The notes beneath the pieces are model-generated. The model was not told the DNA's origin and did no database searches. It was given only the letters and a program-made list of their open reading frames with translations. From a virus (lineage: Duplodnaviria; Heunggongvirae; Uroviricota; Caudoviricetes), in the IMG/VR virus record IMGVR_UViG_2585427734_000005: a stretch of 23,325 nucleotides of DNA; one strand, written 5' to 3'. The first letter of the stretch is position 1. Every line of letters begins with the position of its first letter. Made by a program: the position numbers and the translations under genes. Below are positions 2,795-20,527 of this stretch, in pieces.

Positions 2795-4172
2795 TTGCAT
2801 ATTCCTTAGCCCAGCGGGGCAGTGATAATGTCTTAATAGCTGGCCATTCATCGGTATTCAGGCAGTCAGACAGGGTTCGCAGATTGCGGTGATATTCCTG
2901 TTGACCTGCCAGTTTTGCTTCTTCGCCCATCATGAAAATTTCAACCGGATAACGTCCGCATTCAATAGTTGTGCTGGCAACCAGAAAAACGAAAGTTGGC
3001 TGCACTCCAAACTGTGCTTCATAACCGTCACTGTAGAATGCATCCTGAACGTGATAGCGGTAGTCGTAATAAGCGGTTTTGAATCGTTGAATATCCGCCG
3101 TAGTTTTCACGTCCATGATCCAGTGAAATTCAGGGATAATTTTGTCCGGACGGCACCGACACAAAATTCCTGTTTCAGGATCTTCCCAGTAAATTGATGA
3201 TTCAGCGTGTCCGGCGCTTTCAACAAGCCATTGCCCCAGCGGCAAAGCCATAACGCTTTGATACATGAGTTCAATTTTCCGGCCTTCTTCCGCAGTGATA
3301 ACCGTTTTTCCTGTGCTTGCGCATTCCATCAGAAACGCTTTCTCTTCTTCTTTTCCGGCGTTTGTACGGCGGTTAAATTCAGGTGCTACGATAAAGCGGT
3401 TACTGAATTCTTCCGGTTCAAGTACCCGGCAGTGGAAAGCAGTTCCTAAATCGAGCGTTTTTGTCTTTGTGGTGTCCACGGGGGCATTTTTACGCCACAA
3501 ATATAGTGCCGGAGTATCAGCAATGTCATCGAGCTGAGACTTACTGATACCGGGACCCGCGTGGTAATTCTCATTCGAAATTCCGTAATAAATACCTGGC
3601 TCTATGTCTTCTACGATTACGGGATCTGCGACTTCGCCAGTTTCATCACTGCAATCGCGATGCGGATCGCTGCCAGCATTCTCATTGTGCGGATGTTCAG
3701 CGCCTTCCATTTCCTCCGGATCATTTTCCTTAGCTTCAACCTGACTCTCTTCATCGAATGTTTCCTGGTATGTTGCGTCGCCCATCACCGCACCACAGTC
3801 AGGGCAGTTATCCCCGCCAGTCTGGCCGCAGGCATTGCAGGCTATTTCCGGTTCCTGTTGCACTACTGGCTCAGGTTGATTCATATCCGGGCTGGTTTTT
3901 TCCGTTTCTGGCTGGTTCTGGTACACACAATCGCGAGTCTGGATCCCCTTTACCCATTTCGGATCGTTCGGGTCGCTAATTCCGTCAACAAATTCATCAC
4001 GTGATGCAGCAAGCAATTTATCGGCATCGACAGGATTTTTTGATGGAATGTTTTTCCGGGCTTTATGGAGTTCTGCCCGCAGTTCCTGATATTTCGCATC
4101 AACAGAATTTACCTGTGACTGAGCATCCAGCGGCTGCGTGTCCTGATGATGTTCAGTTGCGTCCGGTTCCAT
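2787..4172 (-). CDS. recE: recE 3' portion: ORF for the C-terminal 461 aa of exonuclease VIII (contains the nuclease domain)
   Basis: Minus-strand ORF starting at ATG 4170-4172, preceded by GGGAGAGG at an 8-nt spacing. The protein ([15 protein letters not shown]...[10 protein letters not shown]) matches the RecE C-terminal region. The frame upstream of the ATG reads ...[23 protein letters not shown], which is also RecE-like. Confidence 0.7.
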
Positions 4173-7308: not shown

Positions 7309-7728
7309 CTATGATGCGTTTTGTGCTTTCTTTTTACGGATTTCTTCGTAGATCATATTGTAATACTGTTTTTTCTCTTCAAGAGTTTTTAATAAGTTAT
7401 CCGCTTCACTTTCTGGCAGTTCGTCTAAGAGATCTAAAAAAATACGTTGTCGTGGCGTTAGAACCCTTGTTTCATAACTGGAGGCTGTGTTCGTTGATGA
7501 TGAAACGATACCATCCATCCATCCCCGGGGTAACCCAAAGGACTCTTCGATAATCTCCACCATATCATCAGCGATCCGTTTTTTTCCCTTTTTCCCCTCT
7601 GGGTACAACATTCTTGATACATAAGAAGGCTCGCGCCCGATCTTTCTGGCCACGTTAACCGCTTTACCATCGCATTTCTCATCACGAATTTTGATGAGTT
7701 GCTGTCGTCTAAATTCATATTTGTCCAT
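7309..7728 (-). CDS. Prophage repressor (RacR-like), 139 aa
   Basis: Minus-strand ORF divergent from the Cro-like gene. Position and orientation match racR in Rac, and the N-terminal segment (AVNVARKIGREPSYVSRM) looks like a helix-turn-helix. The ATG at 7726-7728 has no SD and sits about 7 nt after a TATTAT -10, suggesting a leaderless mRNA. Confidence 0.6.
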   Translation of the reverse strand: MDKYEFRRQQLIKIRDEKCDGKAVNVARKIGREPSYVSRMLYPEGKKGKKRIADDMVEIIEESFGLPRGWMDGIVSSSTNTASSYETRVLTPRQRIFLDLLDELPESEADNLLKTLEEKKQYYNMIYEEIRKKKAQNAS

Positions 7729-7757: not shown

Positions 7758-7828
7758 GTAAACAACCTGTGGGTATTGACTTTTGTTTACCTGTGGGTAT
7801 TCTTTGCTGTGTTTACTAAGGAGTAGCT
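7758..7828 (+). promoter_or_regulatory. Divergent promoter/operator region (pR-like rightward promoter; candidate leaderless repressor promoter on the opposite strand)
   Basis: Rightward: -35 TTGACT (7776-7781), 16-bp spacer, -10 TATTCT (7798-7803), SD AAGGAG (7818-7823), ATG 7829. Two copies of CCTGTGGGTAT (7766-7776, 7790-7800) overlap these elements. Leftward -10 TATTAT (plus 7735-7740) and -35 GTTTAC (plus 7758-7763) lie just left of this span. Confidence 0.45.
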
Positions 7829-8110
7829 ATGGAAGAATTAAGAATATTTCTCAATTCTCTTTCGTCAGATGAACAGCGTATGTTTGCATGCGAGTGTGGT
7901 ACCAGCATCGGTTATCTAAGAAAGGCATTGAGTAAAGGTCAAGTGTTAGGGGCATCGTTATGTGTCCTTATTGAGGGAGCCAGTAATGGTGAAGTTACAC
8001 GTCAGCAACTAAGGCCTTTTGATTGGATGAATATTTGGCCCGAGCTGGAAGATACCAAAATGTTAACACAACCACTTTCTAGGAGCTTGATTCATGAAAA
8101 TCAAGCATGA
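7829..8110 (+). CDS. Cro/YdaS-like small DNA-binding regulator, 93 aa
   Basis: ATG with AAGGAG SD, divergent from the repressor. The motif ...FACECGTSIGYLRKALSKG...RQQLRPFDW... resembles the YdaS/Cro-like family. Its 3' end overlaps the next gene. Confidence 0.6.
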   Translation: MEELRIFLNSLSSDEQRMFACECGTSIGYLRKALSKGQVLGASLCVLIEGASNGEVTRQQLRPFDWMNIWPELEDTKMLTQPLSRSLIHENQA

Positions 8111-8519
8111 ACACATCCGCATGGCGATGAATGCCTGGGCGCATCCGGACGGTGAAAAAGTTCCGGCAGCTGAAATAACCAGGGCTTATTTTGAACTGGG
8201 TATGACGTTCCCAGAACTGTATGACGACAGCCATCCGGAAGCCCTGGCTCGCAATACCCAGAAAATTTTCCGCTGGGTAGAGAAAGACACCCCTGATGCA
8301 GTTGAAAAAATTCAGGCGTTGTTACCAGCTATCGAAAAAGCAATGCCACCTCTGCTGGTGGCCCGAATGCGCAGCCATAGCTCAGCCTATTTTCGGGAAC
8401 TAGTGGAGACGCGGGAACGACTGGTGAGAGACGCTGATGATTTTGTCGCAGTGGCGATCGCTGGTTTCAACCAGATGAATCGTGGTGGCCCTGCAGGAAA
8501 TATTGTGGCTGTGCATTGA
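8094..8519 (+). CDS. YdaT-like protein (CII-like regulator or toxin domain family), 141 aa
   Basis: Starts MKIKHEHI..., as I recall for Rac YdaT, and has a similar length. The ATG at 8094 overlaps the upstream gene (AGGAGC SD at a 7-nt spacing). Confidence 0.6.
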   Translation: MKIKHEHIRMAMNAWAHPDGEKVPAAEITRAYFELGMTFPELYDDSHPEALARNTQKIFRWVEKDTPDAVEKIQALLPAIEKAMPPLLVARMRSHSSAYFRELVETRERLVRDADDFVAVAIAGFNQMNRGGPAGNIVAVH

Positions 8520-8590
8520 CTCGCAATATTCATACCGGATCACTTCCGGCAATTTGTGAGTAAAAAGATTCGGTATCAAAAGAGGTGAGT

Positions 8591-9661
8591 ATGGCTAACG
8601 CCTGGCTCAGATTATGGCATGACATGCCAAATGACCCTAAGTGGCGAACAATTGCCAGGGTGTCAGGACAGCCAATTGCAACAGTGATGGCAGTGTATAT
8701 CCACCTCCTGGTGAGCGCGTCACGAAATGTCACGCGAGGTCACATTGATGTCACGACAGAAGATTTGGCAAGTGCGCTCGACGTGACAGAAGAGGTAATT
8801 GATTCAATTTTGCAGACGATGCAGGGGCGGGGACTTGATGGTGATTTAATCACTGGATGGGAAAAACGCCAGGTGCTTAAAGAGGACAACGGCAATATTT
8901 CGCAAACCGCAAAATCTCCTGCAGAGCGCAAGAGGGCGCAGCGAGAGAGGGAAAGAAAGCGGGAACAAAATGGCGATTGTCACGGCGCGTCACGAAATGT
9001 CACGCACATGTCACGACGAGTCACGACAGATAAAGATACAGATAAAGATACAGATCAAGAAGATCAAAACACTATGGTCCATGGCGTAAAAAACGCCACG
9101 AACCAGGCAGGGGATGTTCAGACCGTCAATCTTGGTCAGCCAGCAGGCACGACACCGGAAGCCGATTCAGCGTATGCGCTGAAAGCCGATTCGGGCGCTG
9201 TGCAGCAGGTGATGACCGCAAGGGCGGAGCAATCACACCAACTGCAGCAGCCTGAAGCCGATTCCGCCATTCAGCGGGAAGCCGATCGGGTAGTCCCGGA
9301 AAACACCGGGCAGTCTGTGGGACGAGTGGATTATCCGGATGTGTTCGAACAGGTCTGGCGGGAGTACCCGTTGCGTGCTGGGGCAAACCCGAAGAAATCC
9401 GCTTTCAGTGCCTGGAAGGCCAGATTACGCGAGGGGGTGCCACCAGAGGCCATGCTGGATGGCGTGAGGCGTTACGCAAGATACTTGGCGGCTACCGGGA
9501 AAACGGGAACGGAATTTGTTCAGCGAGCGACGACGTTTTTTGGACCGGACCGGAATTTTGAGAACCCCTGGTTGCTCCCGGTAAGCGGCACGAACAACCA
9601 GCGTTGTGTGAATCATATTTCTGAACCGGATAACGAAATTCCGCCGGGCTTCAGGGGGTAA
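8591..9661 (+). CDS. Replisome organizer / replication initiator (lambda O-like, YdaU-like), 356 aa
   Basis: ATG at 8591 preceded by AAGAGGTGA. The N-terminus (MANAWLRLWHDMPNDPKWRTIARV) fits the phage replisome-organizer N-terminal pattern. The gene carries iteron arrays and an AT-rich tract that encode a low-complexity linker (SRNVT..., DKDTDKDTDQEDQ). Confidence 0.65.
   Translation: MANAWLRLWHDMPNDPKWRTIARVSGQPIATVMAVYIHLLVSASRNVTRGHIDVTTEDLASALDVTEEVIDSILQTMQGRGLDGDLITGWEKRQVLKEDNGNISQTAKSPAERKRAQRERERKREQNGDCHGASRNVTHMSRRVTTDKDTDKDTDQEDQNTMVHGVKNATNQAGDVQTVNLGQPAGTTPEADSAYALKADSGAVQQVMTARAEQSHQLQQPEADSAIQREADRVVPENTGQSVGRVDYPDVFEQVWREYPLRAGANPKKSAFSAWKARLREGVPPEAMLDGVRRYARYLAATGKTGTEFVQRATTFFGPDRNFENPWLLPVSGTNNQRCVNHISEPDNEIPPGFRG
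8719..8755. repeat. Iteron array 1: four GTCACR repeats at about 10-bp spacing
   Basis: GTCACG at 8719, 8729 and 8750 and GTCACA at 8739, inside the replisome-organizer ORF. Confidence 0.6.
8979..9072. repeat. Iteron array 2 (five GTCACG repeats at about 10-bp spacing) plus adjacent AT-rich tract: putative replication origin
   Basis: GTCACG at 8979, 8989, 8999, 9010 and 9020, followed by GATAAAGATACA x2 and an A/T-rich tract (9031-9072). This mirrors the iteron plus AT-rich layout of ori-lambda inside O. Confidence 0.55.
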
Positions 9662-9701
9662 GTGTTAATTTCTGGTCATGAGGTAATTTTCAGGAGGGCT
9701 T

Positions 9702-10124
9702 GTGGCAAAAGTTTTTACACAAGAAGAGCGGGAAAAAATTAAAGGGCAGGTTCTTGAACTCGTACGCCAGAGTGGGCGCGAGACGTTACGACAACTGGAA
9801 GCTAAAACTGGGGCAACAAGATATCTGATGAGCGTTCTGGCCAGAGAGCTGGTTGCCAGTGGCGATGTATACAATTCTGGCTACGGGTTATTCCCGTCTG
9901 AACAGGCTCGTAAAGACTGGCAAAATGCCCGCAAAAAATTATCGAGGGCAAAGCTGAAGAAACCGGTTGTGGTTGATCCGGACCTTATCTGGTCATTACC
10001 TGACGGAGAAATACGTCGCTACGACAGTCGCCTAAACATAATCTGTCGCGAGTGCCGGAAGAGCGAAGTTATGCAGCGCATATTGTCGTTTTATCAGGGG
10101 GATGTTCGGTATTTATTGAAGTGA
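9702..10124 (+). CDS. Hypothetical phage protein, 140 aa (possible DNA-binding protein)
   Basis: ORF starting at GTG 9702, 4 nt after AGGAGG (9692-9697). Basic and Cys-containing (CRECRK) C-terminal region. No homolog recognised from memory. Confidence 0.45.
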   Translation: MAKVFTQEEREKIKGQVLELVRQSGRETLRQLEAKTGATRYLMSVLARELVASGDVYNSGYGLFPSEQARKDWQNARKKLSRAKLKKPVVVDPDLIWSLPDGEIRRYDSRLNIICRECRKSEVMQRILSFYQGDVRYLLK

Positions 10125-10458: not shown

Positions 10459-12462
10459 ATGATTATGAGTGAAAATGATACAACCCCAAAGAAGTCTACA
10501 AGCCAGATTAACAAAGCGGTATTCTTTACATCTGCTTTGCTAATTTTCCTTCTTGTCGCCTTTGCCGCCGTATTCCCGGATGTCGCCGACAAAAATTTTA
10601 AACTACTTCAGCAACAAATCTTCACGAATGCCAGCTGGTTCTACATACTTGCTGTGGCCCTGATTTTACTGAGCGTCACGTTCCTTGGACTCTCACGTTA
10701 CGGTGATATAAAGCTGGGCCCAGACCATGCGCAGCCTGATTTCAGCTACCACTCCTGGTTCGCGATGCTTTTTTCGGCAGGGATGGGGATCGGCCTGATG
10801 TTCTTTGGCGTTGCCGAACCTGTGATGCATTATCTTTCGCCACCTGTCGGCACTCCAGAGACCGTTGCGGCAGCGAAGGAAGCCATGCGCCTGACGTTCT
10901 TCCACTGGGGTCTGCACGCATGGGCAATTTATGCCATCGTGGCGCTGATTCTGGCCTTTTTCAGTTACCGTCACGGTCTGCCTTTAACGCTGCGTTCTGC
11001 GCTCTATCCCATTATCGGCGATCGCATTTACGGGCCTATAGGCCACGCGGTTGATATCTTCGCCGTGATAGGCACTGTCTTTGGCGTTGCAACATCGCTG
11101 GGTTACGGTGTATTGCAGGTGAATGCCGGTTTGAACCATCTTTTCGGCGTGCCCATCAATGAAACGGTACAGGTCATTTTGATCGTGGTCATCACGGGGT
11201 TAGCGACGATTTCGGTGGTGTCCGGCCTGGACAAGGGAATACGCATCCTGTCTGAGCTTAATCTGGGCCTGGCGGTGTTGCTCCTGGCGCTGGTCTTGTG
11301 CCTGGGTCCCACTGTGCTTCTGCTGAAGTCATTTGTGGAAAATACGGGTGGTTATTTGTCGGAACTGGTGAGTAAAACGTTCAACCTTTACGCGTATGAA
11401 CCCAAGTCGAGCAACTGGCTGGGGGGCTGGACATTATTATACTGGGGATGGTGGCTTTCATGGTCGCCGTTTGTAGGTATGTTCATTGCACGCGTTTCCC
11501 GCGGCAGGACAATTCGTGAGTTCGTGACTGGCGTGTTGTTTGTTCCCGCCGGCTTTACGCTCATGTGGATGACGGTGTTTGGAAACAGCGCCATCTATCT
11601 CATCATGAACCAGGGCGCCACTGACCTCGCCAATACCGTTCAGCAGGATGTTGCGCTTGCCCTGTTTAATTTCCTGGAGCATTTCCCGTTCTCTTCCGTG
11701 CTGTCATTCATTGCAATGGCGATGGTCATCGTCTTCTTTGTAACGTCTGCTGATTCGGGGGCAATGGTTGTGGATACTCTGGCATCAGGTGGGGTGGCAA
11801 ACACGCCCGTCTGGCAGCGAATTTTCTGGGCATCGCTCATGGGCGTTGTTGCTATTGCCCTGCTGATCGCAGGGGGGCTGAGTGCGTTGCAAACCGTAAC
11901 GATAGCGAGTGCATTGCCCTTCTCAGTTATCTTATTAATATCCATATACGGACTGTTAAAAGCCCTGCGTCGGGATTTGACCAAGCGTGAAAGCCTTAGC
12001 ATGGCGACTATTGCTCCTACGGCTGCACGTAACCCAATTCCCTGGCAGAGAAGGTTACGCAATATCGCGTATTTGCCGAAGCGCTCTCTTGTGAAACGTT
12101 TTATGGACGACATTATCCACCCCGCCATGACGCTGGTTCAGGAGGAACTTAACAAGCAGGGAACGATAAGCCACATCAGTGACGCCGCCGAGGATCGTAT
12201 TCGCCTTGAAGTCGATTTGGGCAACGAGCTGAATTATATATATGAAGTGAGGCTTCGCGGGTATAACTCACCGACCTTCGCGCTCGCTGCGCTGGATAAT
12301 GATGAGCAGCAGAGTGAACAACATCGATATTATCGCGCTGAAGTCTATCTCAAAGAGGGCGGCCAAAATTATGATGTAATGGGCTGGAATCAGGAACAGC
12401 TGATTAATGACATACTGGACCAGTACGAAAAACACCTGCACTTCCTGCATCTGGTTCGTTAA
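10459..12462 (+). CDS. betU: BCCT-family osmolyte transporter (BetT/BetU-like), 667 aa
   Basis: Strong similarity throughout to E. coli BetT as recalled (for example WxxWWxxWSPFVGMFIARVSRGRTIREF, SADSG, ...DILDQYEKHLHFLHL). The 667-aa length and position in a Rac-like prophage suggest the BetU variant; the gene symbol is less certain than the family call. Confidence 0.85.
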   Translation: MIMSENDTTPKKSTSQINKAVFFTSALLIFLLVAFAAVFPDVADKNFKLLQQQIFTNASWFYILAVALILLSVTFLGLSRYGDIKLGPDHAQPDFSYHSWFAMLFSAGMGIGLMFFGVAEPVMHYLSPPVGTPETVAAAKEAMRLTFFHWGLHAWAIYAIVALILAFFSYRHGLPLTLRSALYPIIGDRIYGPIGHAVDIFAVIGTVFGVATSLGYGVLQVNAGLNHLFGVPINETVQVILIVVITGLATISVVSGLDKGIRILSELNLGLAVLLLALVLCLGPTVLLLKSFVENTGGYLSELVSKTFNLYAYEPKSSNWLGGWTLLYWGWWLSWSPFVGMFIARVSRGRTIREFVTGVLFVPAGFTLMWMTVFGNSAIYLIMNQGATDLANTVQQDVALALFNFLEHFPFSSVLSFIAMAMVIVFFVTSADSGAMVVDTLASGGVANTPVWQRIFWASLMGVVAIALLIAGGLSALQTVTIASALPFSVILLISIYGLLKALRRDLTKRESLSMATIAPTAARNPIPWQRRLRNIAYLPKRSLVKRFMDDIIHPAMTLVQEELNKQGTISHISDAAEDRIRLEVDLGNELNYIYEVRLRGYNSPTFALAALDNDEQQSEQHRYYRAEVYLKEGGQNYDVMGWNQEQLINDILDQYEKHLHFLHLVR

Positions 12463-12469
12463 CAGCAAC

Positions 12470-12498
12470 ATGCCGCCACAGAGGCGGCATTTATTTAT
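12470..12498 (+). terminator. Rho-independent terminator downstream of the BCCT transporter gene
   Basis: Perfect 8-bp stem ATGCCGCC/GGCGGCAT with loop ACAGA, followed by TTATTTAT, 8 nt after the stop codon. Confidence 0.6.
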
Positions 12499-12525
12499 CC
12501 CGGCTGCAATATGAGGGAATGCAGA

Positions 12526-13803
12526 ATGATTTCACGCTGGAAATGGATGCTGAAGCAGACATTTAAAAAACTATGGTTCAGGGCAACGTTATTCGCAATT
12601 GTCGCAATAATAACGGCCCTTTTATCAATTCTTTTTAAATCAATGATACCTGAGTCGGTTTCCGTGAAGGTTGGTGCGGAAGCAGTCGATAACATTCTGA
12701 ACATACTGGCATCGAGTATGCTGGCAGTGACCACATTTTCGCTGAGCATCATGGTCACAGCCTACGGTTCAGCCACTACTAATGTGACTCCCAGAGCTAC
12801 TCGTTTAGTTGTTGAAGACGTCACCACACAAAATGTACTGGCCACCTTCATCGGTTCTTTTCTCTTCAGTCTGGTAGGGATTATTGCTCTCAATATGGGA
12901 GCTTATGGAGAAAGGGGGAGAGTCATTTTATTCATTGTAACACTGGTTGTCATTGCCTTAATCCTCATCACATTGCTTCGCTGGATACAGCATTTGACCT
13001 CTCTGGGGAGGGTTGGTGAGACAACGGCAAAAGTAGAACAGGCGGCCATCGAAACATTTATTGCGAGAGCAAGAAATCCCTGTCTCGGCGGATATCCATG
13101 GCTTGAGAACAATGAACAGCCGAAAGGAACGGTTGCAGTTTATCCGAAAAAGATTGGCTATGTTGAATATGTTGATATGGTGAAACTCAGCAAGCTGCTG
13201 ACCAATGATCCCCGTCATGTATACCTCGTGGCGCAGCCGGGCAGTTTCATACATCCGTCCACGCCAGTTTTGTACCTGAGTCAGGGCCAGGAGTCATCAA
13301 TCAGCACCGATTTACTTGAGACGATTATTGTCTCGGATGTACGTTCATTTGCTCAGGACCCCCGATTTTGTCTTAGCGTCATGGCCGAAATAGCCTGCCG
13401 AGCCCTTTCCCCCGCAGTGAACGATCCTGGAACCGCCATTGATGTCATTGGCAGAGGTGTACGTATACTTTCCGCTTACGCGCAGAATAAATCTGATGAA
13501 ATAGAAGTGAAATATCCTTCTGTACATGTTGCACCACTTCAGAATAACGATCTACTTGAAGACTTTTTCTCACCTGTTGCGCGCGATGGTGCCAGTATGA
13601 GGGAAATTCAGATAAGGGTACTTAAAGGACTGTCGATGCTGAGTAAGGGTTGGCCTGGAATTTTTGCTGAAGCCGCACAAACCCTAGCATTTGAAACATT
13701 AGAGCATGCTACTCGTGCTGACCATATAGATTCTGACAGATATCTAATAAAATCAATTTATTATAATTTATTTAGTGGCGAAGATTCTAATAAAAAACCA
13801 TAG
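12526..13803 (+). CDS. Hypothetical membrane protein, 425 aa (N-terminal transmembrane segments plus large soluble domain; possibly DUF2254-like)
   Basis: ATG at 12526 preceded by GAGGGAA at a 6-nt spacing (an alternative ATG at 12511 has no SD). Hydrophobic N-terminal half and a long C-terminal domain. The family assignment is a tentative recollection. Confidence 0.6.
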   Translation: MISRWKWMLKQTFKKLWFRATLFAIVAIITALLSILFKSMIPESVSVKVGAEAVDNILNILASSMLAVTTFSLSIMVTAYGSATTNVTPRATRLVVEDVTTQNVLATFIGSFLFSLVGIIALNMGAYGERGRVILFIVTLVVIALILITLLRWIQHLTSLGRVGETTAKVEQAAIETFIARARNPCLGGYPWLENNEQPKGTVAVYPKKIGYVEYVDMVKLSKLLTNDPRHVYLVAQPGSFIHPSTPVLYLSQGQESSISTDLLETIIVSDVRSFAQDPRFCLSVMAEIACRALSPAVNDPGTAIDVIGRGVRILSAYAQNKSDEIEVKYPSVHVAPLQNNDLLEDFFSPVARDGASMREIQIRVLKGLSMLSKGWPGIFAEAAQTLAFETLEHATRADHIDSDRYLIKSIYYNLFSGEDSNKKP

Positions 13804-13863
13804 TTGCGGAGCAAGCGATACGGTTGTTGGCAAGTCAAGGGCAAAGCATTCGCGTGAGAGTGG

Positions 13864-13889
13864 GCGTCTGCTTTGTGCCAGAAGCGGAC
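13864..13889. repeat. Hairpin repeat copy B (GCGTCTGCT-N10-AGCGGAC)
   Basis: 7-bp stem with one G-U-compatible mismatch and loop TTGTGCCAGA (nearly identical to the copy A loop), between the convergent membrane-protein and LysR genes. Confidence 0.5.
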
Positions 13890-13933
13890 ATACGTAACTT
13901 ATGATACGCATCGCCAATCATCCGTTTCAAACA

Positions 13934-14815
13934 TCAACGCGGAAACGTTTTAAGAATGTAATCCCGAACATAGGCGGTTCGGCTGTTATTAGCCGTCCTT
14001 TTGTTCCAGACCAGATAAAGATGATTAGTCGGAGCGAGGTCTGCAGGTGTCACTGAAATCAGGCGACCACTTTTCAGGTCATTGTCACAGTGATAATCCG
14101 GCAGCACTGTCCACCCGTGGCCGTCACAGACCAAGTCGCGGATAATACGTAAATCCGGAATGGTGAATGTAGCCTGCATCTCAGGGGCTCTCTGAAACAT
14201 GGAGGCCCAGAGCGCTCTAATCAGTGGCAACTCTTCGTCATAAGCAATCAGCGGTAATGAGGCAAGCGTTTCAGCACCAGGTTCTGATCCGATGATCTCT
14301 GACATGGCGGGAGCATGAACAAGGAGCATGCGTTCAGTCAGTAGATGTGCATAGCCGTACAGACGGTCATCAGGCATAGATGTGGTAACAGCGAGATCGG
14401 CGCTCCCGTCATGCAAAAGGGAATAAATACGTTGCTTATTGCCGGTATGAAAGCGTAGGCGATACCCCTCCTTCATTAGTGGAGCCATTACTGTCCCAAG
14501 CCGGGAATGAATAAAATCTGGCGGTCCTGCCAGATTAATTGTTCCCCCGCGTACAGAGCCTGACCGGAAAGAGGACAGCTTTTCTTCCAGACCATCAATG
14601 AAGGGTGAAACTGAGCGGGCAAGCTCATCCGCAGCTTCGGTTGCCGTCACGCCTCTGGCCTGCCTGATAAACAGACGCTTACCAACCAGAGTCTCAAGAG
14701 ACTGGATATGCTGTGACGCCGCGGGCTGAGTGATGCCCAGTAGTTCTGCCGCCTTTGAAAAGGAGCCAGAGCGATAGGCCTCAAGAAACGTTCGCAGATG
14801 GCTCAGATGGCTCAT
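13934..14815 (-). CDS. LysR-family transcriptional regulator, 293 aa
   Basis: N-terminal HTH typical of LysR-type regulators (MSHLSHLRTFLEAYRSGSFSKAAELLGITQPAASQHIQSLE) with a C-terminal substrate-binding-like domain. The ATG overlaps the upstream gene's stop (ATGA). Confidence 0.9.
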   Translation of the reverse strand: MSHLSHLRTFLEAYRSGSFSKAAELLGITQPAASQHIQSLETLVGKRLFIRQARGVTATEAADELARSVSPFIDGLEEKLSSFRSGSVRGGTINLAGPPDFIHSRLGTVMAPLMKEGYRLRFHTGNKQRIYSLLHDGSADLAVTTSMPDDRLYGYAHLLTERMLLVHAPAMSEIIGSEPGAETLASLPLIAYDEELPLIRALWASMFQRAPEMQATFTIPDLRIIRDLVCDGHGWTVLPDYHCDNDLKSGRLISVTPADLAPTNHLYLVWNKRTANNSRTAYVRDYILKTFPR

Positions 14816-15504
14816 AGTGAAGCGCCTCGCTGATGAAGTTTATCGTTACAGGGAGCCTCATGCAGAGCAAGGGCCAGTTCACTCACGTAATCATCCCGTA
14901 TTCCCAACGCACCCAGAGTGGCCTGCAGTTTCCATACATAATCTGCATTCGTGCCAATGTCTCCACGGGCAGATGCGATGCTCAACGCTACGGTCGCTGT
15001 AAGATTGTCCTGTTCATAATGCGGATGCAGTCTGTCTGATACGAAAGCCAGCGCCTGAATTTCCTCACCGTTTCCTAGCGAAACGTCTGCCCAGACCGGA
15101 CGGTAAAGACCGGTTATCATCTCGCGCGTCCAGACAATTTCCAGCTCATTAATAAGAGTCGATTCCGGCAGTCTGAACGCAATACCTTCGGTAATTCCAC
15201 CTTCGTCGAGCGATAACATCCTGCCGGGGACATCAGGAGTCGCTCGTCCGGATATCAAACGAATGCAGAAACTGCGCTGCCATCCTTTCAGACGGGCCCG
15301 TTGCATTTCTTCAATCGCCAGCACGGGATTCCACATCAATGACCCGTAGGCAAATATCCAGACAGGAGCACCCGTCGGGCGCTCCTCCAGAGTAGAGTTC
15401 ATTGATGCGCGTATTTTTTCAGCGTCCCAGAGCATATTCGCCGGGAGCAGCGCTTCATGCACCCTGACAAATGTGCCATTAAGCATATTTTCACGGGTAA
15501 GCAT
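14812..15504 (-). CDS. ChaC-like gamma-glutamylcyclotransferase family protein, 230 aa
   Basis: Contains the ChaC/GGCT hallmark VWIFAYGSLMWNP and overall similarity to E. coli ChaC as recalled. GGGAGGT SD upstream of the ATG at 15502-15504. Confidence 0.85.
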   Translation of the reverse strand: MLTRENMLNGTFVRVHEALLPANMLWDAEKIRASMNSTLEERPTGAPVWIFAYGSLMWNPVLAIEEMQRARLKGWQRSFCIRLISGRATPDVPGRMLSLDEGGITEGIAFRLPESTLINELEIVWTREMITGLYRPVWADVSLGNGEEIQALAFVSDRLHPHYEQDNLTATVALSIASARGDIGTNADYVWKLQATLGALGIRDDYVSELALALHEAPCNDKLHQRGASL

Positions 15505-15515
15505 ATAACCTCCCT

Positions 15516-16716
15516 TTACTGGCCTACGATTTTAACCTGTTGAAATTTACGACTGTGGCTGCGACGGATTTGTGCAAGCAGCAACAGCAGGCCGAGCAGA
15601 GAAACAATCGCACCGCTGATACCGGTATACACGATACCGGCGTGGCTTATAGTAATGCTGCCCAGTACTGATCCCAGCGCTATACCTGAGTTGAAGCCCG
15701 CAATATTCAGGCCGGCAGCAACACCATGCGCATGAGGAGCATGTTGCTCAGCGACACCAATCAGACGGGCCTGCAGTGCCGGCACTGCGGCAAATGTCAC
15801 CATACCCAGCAGCGCAACCACAATGCCCATGCTCACCGGTGAGGATGACAGCAGCCACATACCAAGCACGACAACAACAATGCCGCTAATGATGAGTATA
15901 TTGGCACGATTAACCCCCATGCTGTCGGTAAGTTTCCCACCAAGAATATTACCTACCGCAGCTGTAATACCGTAAACCAGCATAAACAGACTCACCGTTG
16001 CTCCGGTAACCCCTGTCACCTGCGTCAGAATAGGTGCGATAAAGGTGTAAGCCGTAAACGAGCCTGCATACGCCAGCACCGTAACCAGCGCGCCGGCCAG
16101 CAACTTACGGTTAAACAGCATGCCGATATTCTGCATTGCTGAGTCACTATGTTCACCGGGCACGCTGCGTACGGGATCTTTCATACCGAACAACAGTCCA
16201 AGGAATCCGAACGCGCCAAAAGCGGCAATAGCGCCGAGAACTGGACGCCATGAGACCCCCCCCCCCCAACCATGTACTCAGCGGTACGCCGATTGCCATC
16301 GCCAGAGTAAAGCCACCAAATACCACAGCCACCGCTCTGCCTGCTTTACCCGGTCCAGCAAGACGAGCTGCGGTACTGGATGCCGCAGCCAGAAACAGGC
16401 CGTGTCCCAGACCAGCAATGAACCGCGCTAACAGGAGCTGAGGTAATGTGGCTGCAAACGCGGCCGCCAGACTACCGGCAGTAAACACAACGGCAGTTGT
16501 AAGCATTACATTTTTCCGGCTCCAGCTTGCTGTCAGCGCAGACAGTACGGGTGCCGCGAACGTTGCCCCCAGTGCATAGGTTGTAACCGCTGCCCCGGTC
16601 TGCTCCACACCCACACACAACCCCTGAGCCATAACGTCTGTCAGCCCAATGGGGACAAATTCCGCGAGTCCGAGCGCAAAGGCACTGATAGTAAACACAT
16701 AAATAACAAATGGCAT
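15516..16716 (-). pseudogene. MFS transporter (DHA1/YdhP-AraJ-like), split into two ORFs by a frameshift at a C12/G12 homopolymer
   Basis: N-terminal ORF 16153-16716 (AGGAG SD, 12 nt after a TM-rich start MPFVIYVFTISAFALGLAEF...) and C-terminal ORF 15516-16193 are both MFS-like with multiple TM helices. The frames switch at the 12-C run at 16256-16267. Confidence 0.8.
16256..16267. repeat. Homopolymeric tract C12 (G12 on the coding strand) at the MFS frameshift site
   Basis: Twelve consecutive C residues counted directly in the sequence. Confidence 0.9.
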
Positions 16717-16932
16717 GACTGGCTCCTGATTTAAGTAAGGAGTGCAGTCTGATTTAGAAAAACAGATAAATAAAATAATGTAAACTTCAGGCGGGATAAA
16801 ATTATTTATATCTAAGGCAAAGATTCAATATTCCCACAGCACACAGAAGTTTTCTGTCTTCAGGGAGAGGAGCTTCGAAAGTTCAGACGAAAAATTCCTG
16901 CGGCCCCTTTAAGAGTCAGTTGGCCGGGTTTG

Positions 16933-16956
16933 GTCCGCTCCTCGCTCAAAGCGGAC
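16933..16956. repeat. Hairpin repeat copy C (GTCCGCT-N10-AGCGGAC)
   Basis: Perfect 7-bp inverted repeat with a 10-nt loop CCTCGCTCAA, in the intergenic region between the MFS start and the hok locus. Confidence 0.5.
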
Positions 16957-17135
16957 TAGAAGGTTAGCTTGCGTCGGACTTGGCGTATTTAAAGAAGTGC
17001 TGGTGGTGACTGGTTGTTGTGTTCCATTTCTACAGAACAAAATCACAGAAACTATACCCAATAGTTATATTGAATCAATGATGAGACAGCCTCATATTTA
17101 TCAGAACTGGTGTACGTCCAATACAGGAGGTTGTC

Positions 17136-17225
17136 GTGCTGGTTCTCAAATGTGCGCTAGCTATTGCGGCTGTAATGGCAATTTATTGTCTTGCTGTTGT
17201 TCTTATGGATCGCCTTTCTGATTGA
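17136..17225 (+). CDS. Candidate small hydrophobic peptide, 29 aa (MLVLKCALAIAAVMAIYCLAVVLMDRLSD)
   Basis: GTG start 5 nt downstream of a GGAGG SD (17126-17130). Single predicted TM helix with a charged C-terminus. It overlaps, in another frame, the Cys-rich 74-aa ORF from the track, which has no SD. Confidence 0.3.
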   Translation: MLVLKCALAIAAVMAIYCLAVVLMDRLSD

Positions 17226-17309
17226 TTTTATATTGGCGAGGTGACGGGAGTTAAGTAGAATTGCTGCGGGTGCTTGAGGCTATCTGCCTCAGGCATGAAC
17301 ACCAAAGGC

Positions 17310-17388
17310 AGATAGAGAAAAGCCCCAGTTAACATTACGCGTCCTGCAAGACGCTTAACATTAATCTGAGGCTCAATCTATGAACGGC
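17310..17388 (-). ncRNA. Putative Sok-like antisense RNA of the hok locus
   Basis: Minus-strand promoter: -35 TTGCCT (plus 17418-17423), 17-bp spacer, -10 TAACCT (plus 17395-17400), same layout as the R1 Sok promoter as recalled. The transcript would be antisense to the hok leader and end at a GCGTC/GACGC hairpin followed by a U-rich run. Boundaries are approximate. Confidence 0.35.
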
Positions 17389-17436
17389 AAATCTAGGTTA
17401 GCCTCTTACGTGCCGAAAGGCAAGGAGAAGCAGGCT

Positions 17437-17592
17437 ATGAAGCAGCAAAAGGCGATGTTAATCGCCCTGATCGTCATCTGTTTAACCGTTATAGTGACGG
17501 TACTGGTAACGAGGAAAGACCTCTGCGAGGTACGAATCCGAACCGACCAGACGGAGGTCGCTGTCTTCACAGCTTACGAACTTGGGGAGTAA
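17437..17592 (+). CDS. hokD: Hok-family type I toxin (HokD/RelF-like), 51 aa
   Basis: MKQQKAMLIALIVICLTVIVTVLVTRKDLCEVRIRTDQTEVAVFTAYELGE is near-identical to HokD/RelF as recalled. AAGGAG SD at 17422-17427, an upstream in-frame mok-like ORF from 17380, and a 3' hairpin GCGGGGA-GAAA-TCCCCGC (17601-17618). Confidence 0.8.
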   Translation: MKQQKAMLIALIVICLTVIVTVLVTRKDLCEVRIRTDQTEVAVFTAYELGE

Positions 17593-18055
17593 GAGGACCA
17601 GCGGGGAGAAATCCCCGCAACCTCTGATGTATTATGCATCCTCAACGCAGCCACAGTTAACCTGATTGGCGGGGTTACTTCATCTGTAAATATTTTTTTA
17701 AAAATAATGCCCACGCACAGCATAAAACAAAAAGTATTACAGATAAAAAAGGAACGTAATGTGCAGATTTGTTGTTTTCCATATTTACTCACCTTAATAT
17801 GATTAACCCTGATAGGGTTGTTATTTCAGCGGTTTTCAAATGAGATATTATGGTGATCTGACAAATTTGCATAACATTAAAATTTAATTTGTTTAACCGC
17901 TTTTAATAATAAGCGTTGTTTGTATCCCAGCAATCTGTTGTTTGGTTTTTATTCCATTAAGGTGGGGGCTTTACACTGGAACCAGTTTATTTATACTTTA
18001 TACGTCAGCCTGAACAACTGGCATCTGCTGCACTGCGCCATCGAGAGATTGAGAA

Positions 18056-18655
18056 ATGGCGCATATACAACTGGTCAAACAAACTTCTTCTGGTTTACTT
18101 CTCCCGGCGACGCCGGAGAGTTGCGATTTTCTGCATCAAATCAAAATAGGTGAGTGGATACACGTAGACTTTAAGCGTGTGCGTAACTACGCATTCCACA
18201 AGCGTTTTTTCAAACTCCTGCAACTGGGATTCGATTACTGGACTCCGGTCGGTGGGGCGATCACGCCTCGCGAACGAGAACTGCTGTCTGGTTTCGTTGA
18301 TTACCTGTGCGAATCAGTTGGTCGGGAACACACGCCAGCCCTGAGTGATGCCGCAGAGCAATACCTTAACACCGTTGCGACTCGTAGAACCCGGGATACG
18401 GCGTTGCTAAAGTCGTTTGAGGCTTTCCGCGAGTGGGTAACCATTCAGGCCGGATTTTACACCGAGCATATTTATCCGGACGGTAGCCGTGGGCGTCGGG
18501 CAAAATCCATCGCTTTTGCGAATATGGACGAAGTCGAGTTTCAGCAGGTTTATAAATCTGTACTGAATGTGCTGTGGAACTGGATTCTGTTCCGTAAATT
18601 CTCCTCTCAGGAGGAAGTTGAAAATGTGGCCGCACAACTACTGGAGTTTGCGTAA
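18056..18655 (+). CDS. Phage protein (DUF1367-like; position equivalent to Qin ydfU N-terminal part), 199 aa
   Basis: ORF with ATG at 18056, translationally coupled to the next gene (TAATG at 18653-18657). The family call comes from recalled gene order in lambdoid prophages (DUF1367, YbcO, Q) and is not confirmed by sequence. Confidence 0.5.
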   Translation: MAHIQLVKQTSSGLLLPATPESCDFLHQIKIGEWIHVDFKRVRNYAFHKRFFKLLQLGFDYWTPVGGAITPRERELLSGFVDYLCESVGREHTPALSDAAEQYLNTVATRRTRDTALLKSFEAFREWVTIQAGFYTEHIYPDGSRGRRAKSIAFANMDEVEFQQVYKSVLNVLWNWILFRKFSSQEEVENVAAQLLEFA

Positions 18656-19122
18656 TGGTGAATTTACGTAAAGCGGCTAAAGGCCAGATGTGCCAGATCA
18701 GAATCCCTGGCTACTGCAATCACAATCCCGAAACCTCTGTGCTGGCGCATTACAGGCTGGCGGGGACGTGCGGAACAGCGACAAAACCACACGATATGCA
18801 GGCGGCGATAGCCTGTAGCTCATGCCACGATCTAATCGACGGGCGGGTAAAAACCAGCGATTACACCAAAGAAGAATTGCGCCTGATGCATGCTGAAGGG
18901 GTTTTCGCACACAAGAAATCTGGAGAAAGAAAGGTCATTTATGATTTACCCAACGAATACAGGAAAAAGCGGAGAACACCTTCGCCTCACCACGCTGGAA
19001 AGTGTCTGGATTCAGGGAAAACTACGTATGTGGGGGCGCTGGTCGTATATTGGCGGTGGCAGGTCAGGGAATATGTTCAATCAGTTGTTGGCATCCAAAA
19101 AACTGACGAAAACAGCCATTAA
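18655..19122 (+). CDS. YbcO-like protein (DUF1364, Cys-rich putative nuclease), 155 aa ORF, about 60 aa longer than typical YbcO
   Basis: N-terminal 95 aa (MVNLRKAAKGQMCQIRIPGYCNHNPETSVLAHYRLAGTCGTATKPHDMQAAIACSSCHDLIDGR...) resembles DLP12 YbcO as recalled. The ORF then continues and overlaps the next gene by about 180 nt. Confidence 0.55.
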   Translation: MVNLRKAAKGQMCQIRIPGYCNHNPETSVLAHYRLAGTCGTATKPHDMQAAIACSSCHDLIDGRVKTSDYTKEELRLMHAEGVFAHKKSGERKVIYDLPNEYRKKRRTPSPHHAGKCLDSGKTTYVGALVVYWRWQVREYVQSVVGIQKTDENSH

Positions 19123-19483
19123 TGAAGCCCTGCGCAGAATGAAAAAAGCGGGAATAGAGAAAGCTGAGCTGGAAGCGTTTTTGCGAGAGATGATCAACGG
19201 CAAGCAAAAGAGCTGGCTGGCGCATTGTACTGATGCAGAGGCGTTATGTATTGATCGAGTCATAAGTGAGGTGCTGGCAGAGCATCCAGGATTGATTTGC
19301 ATTCTCCGGCAACGCTATGAAGGGCGGGGGATGACTAAGCGCAAAATGGCTGAATTGCTAAATGATGCACACCCAGAGTGGTGTTTTAGCACATGCGAAA
19401 AACGGATTGCTAATTGGTTAGCTGTTGCTGAGTATGCCCTATATATTCCCATGCGTGAATCATTTGCTGAGAAAATGGCTTGA
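18941..19483 (+). CDS. Putative late-gene antiterminator (Q-like), about 180 aa
   Basis: Positioned directly upstream of the terminator and the moron/lysis region. It has a ...LESVW...WGRWSY... segment reminiscent of the LERWGAW motif of Q21/QuuD-type antiterminators. The start is uncertain (ATG 18941 with a weak SD; the ORF opens at 18890). Confidence 0.45.
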   Translation: MIYPTNTGKSGEHLRLTTLESVWIQGKLRMWGRWSYIGGGRSGNMFNQLLASKKLTKTAINEALRRMKKAGIEKAELEAFLREMINGKQKSWLAHCTDAEALCIDRVISEVLAEHPGLICILRQRYEGRGMTKRKMAELLNDAHPEWCFSTCEKRIANWLAVAEYALYIPMRESFAEKMA

Positions 19484-19563
19484 TTTCTTACGTATAAACT
19501 GCTTCAATTTTGCTATGCTTCGTAAAGCTGTATCGCGAGGCGGATTGCAGACATGGACATCGT

Positions 19564-19590
19564 AAAAAAACCGCTTAATGCGGTTTTTTT
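19564..19590. terminator. Intrinsic (bidirectional) terminator downstream of the Q-like gene
   Basis: AAAAAAACCGC-TTAAT-GCGGTTTTTTT: GC stem flanked by an A7 run on one side and a T7 run on the other. Confidence 0.7.
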
Positions 19591-20527
19591 ACGTCAGGAA
19601 AGCAGGGGAGAATGCTGCTAGTTGGGCAACTGGTCTTTCTGCTCCAAATTATAACAGAGACCAGTTATAGTTTCGGTGCTGTGTTTTTTTTACAATATTG
19701 TGATAACACATTGCTGGCGGGAGTTTTGATATTTCTTGGCAGGGGCTGATGATGCGTTATCCTGATGTCGTCAACTCATATAAAATGAGATGAGAGATCA
19801 TTGCAGGGTGGTTTGTAATTCGCTGTTTAGCGGGACAATATGTTGTCTGATACAAGACACCCGACGCCTCAGATTACTATAATAAAGATGAAGCATCCTT
19901 TGTATTGACCAACCACCTGTTTAGGCGGTTCTTTTTGGGCTGGTTTATTGTATGCAAAATGATTATTAAAAAGGTTGTGTTAATAACAAAATCCGAAATA
20001 ATATGCCTGCATATTTTTATCTTGCTTATATTCTGCATATTGTGCATAGCAGGCTCATCCCTGCAATCAAAACTGTATGATGAGTATTTTTTGTTTTCCT
20101 TTTTTCCAGTCATCTGATGATGACCTGCTTCTTTTTAATCCGGATCGACATCAGTTTTTTAAGATAATTCCTGCGAGTTATATGCATAAATGCCACAAAC
20201 TCCGCATTTTATGTGGTTGGGAGTTGCCGGGCGCGCAGTGAGTTTGCTAAGAAAACTCCTGCATGGTGAATCCCCCTGTGCGGTGGGGTGATACCATTAA
20301 CCTTTTCTGTCGCCGACAGGTATCACGAACATTTTGTTCACCGGGAGGCACCCGGCACCATGCACTTCAATAGATTCTCTCCACATTATGGATATTCTTT
20401 CAGAATATCCCACGCAGACTTTGTGTAAATGTTAACAAATGTGCGTTTTATTTGATCTGATTCGCTGTTTGAGCGTCCAAAACAACGGTATATATAATCC
20501 TTTACTATATGACATATGTGAGGAAAA

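Follow-up and report, generated by a model that had tools for sequence, protein, structure and literature searches.

The placing of a replication origin inside the gene of its own initiator protein is a textbook arrangement. In ori-lambda, iterons and an AT-rich tract lie in the middle of gene O, and the iterons are four to six imperfect inverted repeats of 19 bp (PMC7466680). In phage SPP1, the AB boxes and the unwinding element of oriL are embedded in gene 38 (PMC5737612), and the cryptic Rac prophage of Escherichia coli K-12 has been reported to keep an active origin, oriJ (PMC3945230). The stretch analyzed here (the window; 23,325 nt, IMG/VR virus record IMGVR_UViG_2585427734_000005) is a Rac-type E. 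coli prophage adjoining ttcA, and carries a gene for a protein of 356 amino acids (aa), hereafter the initiator, in which two arrays of short repeats, an A-rich tract and a hairpin follow each other (Table 1). Positions 8717-9105 are probably the replication origin of this Rac-type lambdoid prophage, located inside the gene of its own initiator. This assignment is based on the clustering of the repeats, their selection at the DNA level, the recurrence of the layout in homologous loci, the linkage of the repeats to the N-terminal domain of the initiator (N-domain), the unstable tract with its hairpin, the likeness to ori-lambda and SPP1, and the existence of single-gene modules in deposited phage genomes together with a DnaT-like C-terminal domain. 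For the origin of this initiator family, no published description was found in the literature on GTCACG iterons, on replisome-organizer origins in Gram-negative phages and on oriJ.

An original prediction, made from the letters of the window, had described nine GTCACR motifs in two clusters at 10-11 bp spacing, a direct repeat and an A/T-rich stretch after the second cluster, and matching repeats in the encoded protein. All of these were recovered: the nine motifs stand where they had been placed, with spacings of 10, 10 and 11 nt in array 1 and of 10, 10, 11 and 10 nt in array 2, the third copy of array 1 (8739) reading GTCACA; the direct repeat comprises 2.9 copies in a stretch with a GC content of 0.30 (9025-9074); and the peptides are ASRNVTRGH..VTT (aa 43-56), ASRNVTHMSRRVTT (aa 133-146) and DKDTDKDTDQEDQ (aa 147-159). 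Two further elements, a tenth, inverted GTCACR copy and the hairpin, are added here. Ten of the 26 GTCACR sites of the window fall within 314 bp, where 0.22 would be expected from the rest of the window (Poisson P ~6e-14; ~4e-12 with scanning correction), and there is no second cluster elsewhere in the 23 kb. At least 11 GTCACG-class loci (see below) have the inverted copy at an equal offset in the gene, as does the Pseudomonas phage, and the third-codon-position entropy of the copy, which covers two positions only, is 0.67 bit against a background of 1.40. Neither a DnaA-box nor an IHF consensus was found between 8400 and 9700. The arrays are 260 bp apart in the window and 197 to 281 bp apart in homologues, and strict helical phasing between the two arrays was rejected on account of this variation.

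The repeats are selected as DNA and not as protein, because the motif uses all codon phases, recoding of the gene fails to reproduce it, third positions are frozen, and the corresponding peptide differs in Pseudomonas phage 5371. The GTCACR copies start in codon phases 3, 1, 2 and 1 in array 1 and 2, 3, 1, 3 and 1 in array 2, and the residues encoded by the motif vary with the phase (SR, VT, GH or CH). Nine or more copies were reached in 0 of 5000 synonymous resamplings and in 0 of 5000 permutations of the gene's own codons, which gave means of 1.5 and 2.5 copies, respectively, and a maximum of 7. Among 21 homologues of the GTCACG class with roughly 55-70% protein identity, third-codon-position entropy is 0.10 bit in the cores of array 1 against 1.40 elsewhere in the domain (p 3.5e-6). 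In array 2, the peptide is DDVTQCHAESRNVT in Pseudomonas phage 5371 and DCHGASRNVTHMSRRVT in the window, while the DNA motif and its 10-bp spacing are alike. The DNA elements overlie protein segments that tolerate change, namely a surface loop and a disordered linker: array 1 encodes aa 46-55, a loop that connects two of the helices in the winged-helix domain (AlphaFold2 secondary structure), and array 2 encodes the start of the linker, residues 128-243 having a predicted local distance difference test score (pLDDT) below 50 in the AlphaFold2 model.

Directly after array 2, a tandem repeat of ACAGATAAAGAT (2.9 copies, 9026-9060) and the adjoining CAAGAAGATCAAAACAC form an A-rich, purine-rich tract, which is the presumed DNA unwinding element. 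No other 40-mer of the gene is as unstable as its segment 9030-9069 (72% AT, 70% purine), which also ranks within the least stable 0.94% of the window. The tract contains two GATC (Dam) sites, at 9053 and 9062, and one or two such sites occur in the equivalent tract of 7 out of 10 other enterobacterial sequences, K-12 ydaU among them; this recurrence hints at Dam/SeqA control.

The inverted repeat that borders the tract (GGTC-cat-GGCGT-aaaaa-ACGCC-acg-AACC) has a DNA fold of -8.7 kcal/mol (z -3.5). In lambda, a palindrome follows the AT-rich tract. The hairpin is kept in Shigella phage 75/02 Stx (Shiga toxin) despite an unrelated N-domain, with one stem pair changed on both sides and the pairing preserved, and perfect stems of at least 6 bp were found within 110 nt past the last iteron in 22 of 42 loci compared with 22.5% of controls (p 1.2e-6). 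The hairpin encodes the conserved linker peptide NTMVHGVK, and since this peptide lies in a predicted disordered region, its conservation probably reflects a constraint at the DNA level. The same peptide, as NT(M/L)VHG(E/V)K, is conserved next to unrelated N-domains in proteins P0196, P0198, P0250 and P0252 and in Shigella phage 75/02 (locus L143, ~3510-3545).

The layout recurs widely. A scan of viral contigs with the N-domain gave only sequences of ~99% identity, of no use for divergence, so the diverse set was drawn from genome contigs: an alignment-based scan with one genome per species yielded 58 loci from gamma-, beta- and alpha-proteobacteria and Acidobacteria, 57 of which were analyzed, a run being defined as at least three identical 5-mers at a spacing of 10/11 nt in the first 600 nt of the gene. 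At least one run was found in 45 of the 57 loci, and two runs of one 5-mer in 33, compared with one run in 6 and two runs in 0 of the 710 control windows from the same loci. In the loci with two runs, the first lies around +120 to +180 of the gene and the second around +345 to +450. Neighboring copies, counted over all loci, are spaced by 10 nt in 153 cases, by 11 nt in 47 and by 9 nt in 14. The iteron core differs by lineage, being GTCACG, GTAACG or CGAACGC, and both arrays of a locus share one core; the 3' half, ACG(C), is common to the three classes, and core switches occur inside one host group. In most homologous loci, array 2 is followed by a (GATAAA)n, (GATACA)n or (GAGAAG)n tract. Array 1 also expands by frame-preserving additions: Escherichia albertii has six copies against four, the additional 21 nt being made up of units of 10 and 11 (locus L085, +129 to +186), and some E. 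coli variants (P0162, P0181) have a matching insertion of seven residues, TCHGVSR.

Comparison of the window proteins across these loci suggests that, among those compared, only the N-domain travels with the repeats: it is present in 46 of 46 iteron-bearing loci, whereas relatives of the repressor were found in 3, of cro in 7, of cII in 3, of the C-terminal domain (C-domain) in 2 and of the DUF977 protein in 2. The C-terminal half of the initiator is freely exchanged, as the helical domain with a DnaT-like tail in the window is replaced by the Pfam DnaT domain in E. coli O157 relatives, and Pseudomonas phage 5371 has an unrelated C-domain followed by a Toprim and DnaB-type primase-helicase.

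The initiator, whose ATG at 8591 agrees with the MANxWLRLW start of its homologues, is matched end to end by phrog_3729, 'replication initiation protein' (E 2e-256), and its NCBI cluster is named 'phage replisome organizer'. Its plan comprises an N-terminal winged helix, a disordered linker and a C-terminal DnaT-like domain. The best structural match of the N-domain is the N-terminal winged helix of DnaD; Foldseek with the full model against the PDB gave nothing significant. No Pfam hit to the lambda O family was obtained, the sole Pfam-A hit at E <=0.01 being a sub-threshold Crp-like helix-turn-helix, and no lambda O chain was found in the PDB sequence search. The match to TIGR01714 (phage_rep_org_N) reaches E 0.0084 and 16.3 bits, far under the cut-off of 49.8, and two PHROG 'replisome organizer' families match weakly (E 6e-6 and 6e-5).

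Some relatives of the N-domain bear on the loop that array 1 encodes. The loop tripeptide E-R-G is conserved at the homologous positions in L084-L141, array-less homologues included, and GAA-CGC-GG spells the CGAACGC-class core, such that the CGAACGC iteron coincides with the conserved E-R-G codons. In several proteins (P0043, P0061, P0063, P0074, P0102 and P0114; locus L141), the N-domain is fused to an HNH endonuclease that replaces the linker and the C-domain, and one of them, P0074, retains the ASRNVTRGH loop. The HNH-fused homologues may be nucleases directed at iteron-type sites.

The C-domain resembles the host protein DnaT. Its profile matches residues 107-179 of E. coli DnaT with a probability of 94.6% (hhalign, E 7e-8), the tail matches the DnaT chains 6aep, 2ru8 and 9zbt of the PDB and positions 156-179 of the NCBIfam DnaT family NF002770, and the last 17-24 residues, VN..SEPD..IPPGFRG, are nearly identical to the DnaT C-terminus. 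A protein search with the C-domain alone returned mostly fragments and gave a shallow alignment. PF17948, the DNA-binding domain of DnaT, was not hit in the initiator and is present in sister proteins that share the N-domain, such as P0204 (E 1.4e-17). The C-terminal domain of DnaT docks on PriA, and on single-stranded DNA it assembles into filaments (PMC13377028). The S.PD..IPPGFRG tail of host DnaT also ends the initiator (9590-9658), K-12 YdaU and the mEp460 replication protein (as IPAGFRG; locus L144, 3033-3851). This distribution, over three proteins with unrelated N-domains, suggests that the DnaT-type tail is a portable motif by which proteins dock on host machinery.

That no loader gene follows the initiator, as had been noted from the sequence, holds true: a DUF977/Ren-like gene comes next, and then the BCCT transporter gene. 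The accompanying suggestion that the replication module may be incomplete is not supported, as single-gene modules occur in phages. In vB_EcoS-689R5, a deposited phage record of a partial genome, the gene is 98.6% identical with all ten motifs kept, and is followed after the same 40-nt gap by a DUF977-like gene and by no loader. In mEp460, the replication protein has a C-domain 51% identical to that of the initiator and is likewise not followed by a loader gene; the mEp460 annotation calls the genes of phage SfV similar. Shigella phage 75/02 Stx combines a related C-domain with a DnaC-like gene, hence both arrangements exist. As the C-domain and its tail resemble DnaT, whose C-terminal domain docks on PriA, recruitment of host factors is a reasonable inference, and it is plausible that a single-gene module relies on the loading factors of the host.

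By analogy with ori-lambda and SPP1 oriL, the binding, melting and firing of the origin would proceed as follows. The N-terminal winged-helix domain would bind the 6-bp GTCACG cores, which lie one helical turn apart, so that at each of the two arrays, which are separated by 260 bp, the bound proteins would share one face of the helix. The nucleoprotein assembly would then stress and melt the A-rich tract (9026-9074), which is bounded by the hairpin (9075-9105), and the DnaT-like C-domain would engage the single strand, the host restart or loading machinery (DnaB-DnaC, possibly PriA), or both. If the C-domain uses host machinery in this manner, no phage-encoded loader would be needed.

Several observations weigh against an origin at this site. 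The lambda model has no need of a second array 260 bp away, nor of one in the part of the gene that codes for the DNA-binding domain, and array 1 may have another role, such as autoregulation or looping. The canonical recognition-helix position (aa 67-77, EEVIDSILQTM) is acidic, and no residue outside the loop encoded by array 1 separates the iteron classes: with this loop masked, the similarity of the N-domains is 0.64 between classes and 0.64-0.71 within them. The sole class-discriminating column is aa 48, inside the array-encoded loop, and co-evolution of reader and site is therefore inseparable from the coding overlap. Twelve of the 57 homologues are without detectable arrays. Only part of the vB_EcoS-689R5 genome is in the deposited record, and a search for a paper on this phage found none. 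Furthermore, there is a cargo island in the prophage, and Rac is called a 'cryptic prophage' in the K-12 record; the origin may never fire in this host.

The separation of the arrays, together with the position of array 1 in the coding region of the DNA-binding domain and the inverted copy after it, could also indicate that the arrays are initiator sites for autoregulation or copy control by roadblock, looping or handcuffing, with replication starting elsewhere in the prophage, and plasmid iterons indeed serve initiation and control alike. This is improbable, as an unstable A-rich tract directly after array 2, usually with a hairpin, follows the grammar of an unwinding site and not of an operator, and the 23-kb window holds no other motif cluster; the two roles are mutually compatible. 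It is very unlikely that a factor other than the initiator, such as a host protein, the repressor, the DUF977 protein or the cII/YdaT-like activator, binds the repeats. Such a factor would be favored by the acidity of the putative recognition helix, which makes the DNA-reading surface of the initiator unclear. However, of the 46 iteron-bearing loci, all have the N-domain, whereas each of the neighboring phage genes is found in just 2 to 7; a single host factor is unlikely to account for three cores in hosts that range from Escherichia and Pseudomonas to Sphingomonas and Acidobacteria, with switches of the core inside one host group; and DnaA-box and IHF consensus sequences are absent from 8400-9700.

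The occurrence of the ASRNVT peptide twice, and a family of 39-nt repeats that links the two arrays at 64-72% identity, could be taken to mean that the repeats merely reflect SRNVT peptide repeats or an old internal duplication and have no function as DNA. Such an origin of the repeats is scarcely credible in view of the three codon phases, the failure of all 5000 + 5000 recodings and the near-invariant synonymous sites; moreover, the peptides of array 2 differ among homologues while the DNA core is constant, and both peptide stretches lie in a loop or a disordered linker. The possibility that the origin-like element is an inactive relic in a defective prophage concerns its activity in this host rather than the nature of the element. 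The Rac site by ttcA, the cargo island (BCCT transporter and others) after the early genes and the annotation of K-12 Rac as a cryptic prophage would be in line with a relic, yet the gene and all parts of the origin are intact, many E. coli genomes carry the stretch at 99.9% identity, the product is 98.6% identical to that of vB_EcoS-689R5, and even the cryptic K-12 Rac is reported to have an active oriJ (PMC3945230), so that we give this explanation very little weight. An origin at 8717-9105 remains the preferred interpretation.

If an origin lies here, it may have a further property, which we regard as unlikely. Array 1 encodes the loop of aa 43-56, the sole loop that differs between iteron classes, and origin and reader could be self-coupled. 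If this loop helps to read the 5' half of the iteron, a mutation in the array would change the site and the reading loop together, and array 2 would follow by conversion. Self-coupling would represent a built-in specificity switch that allows escape from interference by co-resident prophages, and would explain why N-domains that are otherwise very similar fall into GTCACG, GTAACG and CGAACGC lineages. With three iteron classes on one scaffold, the family also provides a natural series for the study of changes in origin specificity.

A defined pair of origin and initiator would provide a concrete site at which induction and replication of the prophage could be mapped, and a candidate single-gene phage replicon for vectors. 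It would also be a testable case of a phage initiator with a DnaT-like domain instead of a dedicated loader, and bears on how DnaT-type domains recruit DnaB-DnaC. E. coli O157 has relatives with the same N-domain, and Stx-converting phages have relatives of the C-domain; according to one survey, the replication proteins of non-lambdoid Stx phages are entirely uncharacterized (PMC8951638).

The early genes of the window are ordered intR, xisR, ralR, recT, recE, racC and kilR, then sieB, and the initiator lies downstream of a cro/YdaS-like and a cII/YdaT-like gene in a rightward operon (Table 1). Transcription through these two genes (7829..8519) would run into the origin. A promoter-like site at 7776-7803 is a consensus match only; scans for promoters and terminators found no more sites than in shuffled sequence, and the hairpin was their sole useful output. 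A minus-strand promoter-like match lies within array 2 (9003-8976; GTGACA, 16 nt, GACAAT), again by consensus only and in a region that is not above shuffled sequence. No Rfam family was matched in 8300-9800, and a structured RNA is therefore not indicated.

The gap between the initiator gene and the DUF977/Ren-like gene is 40 nt. The cargo island (10459-20300) sits where K-12 Rac carries trkG, after the early genes, and contains genes for the BCCT transporter, a DUF2254 protein, a LysR regulator, a gamma-glutamylcyclotransferase and an MFS transporter, followed by hokD and nin-region genes. DNA similar to the initiator gene is present in 2923 of 5426 complete E. coli genomes (about half), with most of the gene in 1647. 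A 99% identical fragment labelled Staphylococcus saprophyticus (P0020) and a 29-aa fragment at a contig end of a Collinsella metagenome-assembled genome (L139) are probably E. coli contamination or the result of mis-binning.

Table 1. Elements of the putative origin and neighboring genes, in window coordinates.
Feature	Position	Strand	Remarks
Repressor gene	7309-7728	-	
cro/YdaS-like gene	7829-8110	+	upstream in the rightward operon of the initiator
cII/YdaT-like gene	8094-8519	+	upstream in the rightward operon of the initiator
Initiator gene, 356 aa, 'phage replisome organizer'	8591..9661	+	open reading frame list, homologues, phrog_3729
N-terminal winged-helix coding region, aa 1-95	8591..8875	+	presumed iteron-binding domain
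Iteron array 1	8717..8757	+	4x nnGTCACRnn at 8719, 8729, 8739, 8750
Lone inverted iteron copy	8782..8787	-	32 nt downstream of array 1
Iteron array 2	8977..9027	+	5 copies at 8979, 8989, 8999, 9010, 9020
A-rich, purine-rich tract, (ACAGATAAAGAT) x2.9 + CAAGAAGATCAAAACAC	9026..9074	+	presumed DNA unwinding element
Inverted repeat/hairpin	9075..9105	.	directly 3' of the A-rich tract
C-terminal helical domain, aa 244-356, DnaT-like tail VNHISEPDNEIPPGFRG	9320..9661	+	hhalign, PDB, NCBIfam
DUF977/Ren-like gene	9702..10124	+	PF06163 E 2e-28; phrog_142 'Ren-like exclusion protein' match
BCCT transporter gene	10459-12462		start of the cargo island

Among the described systems, the Rac prophage of K-12 shares with the window the chromosomal site and the early order of repressor, ydaS-like gene, ydaT-like gene, initiator and DUF977 gene. 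In K-12 ydaU the elements succeed each other as they do in the window: TGTTCA-type repeats are followed by aataaagatacagataaagatc with two GATC sites and by a C7/G6 hairpin, and YdaU ends with the tail PD..IPPGFRG. On the other hand, the N-domain of YdaU is DUF1376 and unrelated, the repeats are different, and the DnaC-like YdaV follows; BLASTP of the initiator against YdaU aligned only the 19-residue tail and the low-complexity linker, and the window has neither a DUF1376 hit nor a ydaV-like gene. At locus L142, 4472-4665, the K-12 stretch reads as TGTTCA-type repeats, then aataaagatacagataaagatctaaaaacagatc, then the C7...G6 hairpin. It is a candidate for the position of oriJ, whose coordinates are not given in the papers found.

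SPP1 oriL and its organizer G38P, which belongs to the phage_rep_org_N type known from Gram-positive phages, resemble the locus in having repeats (bound by the organizer in SPP1) and an adjacent unwinding element, predicted in the case of the window, inside the organizer's own gene. The sequence tie to the G38P/TIGR01714 organizers is weak (16.3 bits against 49.8), while the fold is consistent (DnaD N-terminal domain-like). In contrast to the window, which has no such genes and no second cluster, SPP1 encodes the loader G39P and the helicase G40P and has a second site, oriR.

The ori-lambda layout proposed in the original prediction stands as far as iterons and an AT-rich tract inside the initiator gene are concerned, and does not extend to lambda O homology, the type of iteron or a P gene. 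As in lambda, the origin lies inside the initiator gene with repeats preceding the AT-rich tract, the linker that joins an N-terminal origin-binding domain (binding being presumed here) to a C-terminal recruitment domain is encoded by the DNA elements, and the initiator gene is located in the rightward early operon after cro and cII analogues. Unlike lambda O, the initiator has no lambda O homology and possesses a DnaD-like N-terminal winged helix; its sites are 6-bp direct-repeat cores every 10-11 bp with one isolated inverted copy, instead of 19-bp inverted repeats; there are two arrays, one of them within the coding region of the DNA-binding domain; and a DnaT-like C-terminus is found in a window without a P gene. 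The resemblance to ori-lambda is thus best described, from the sequence comparisons, as one of function and not of family membership.

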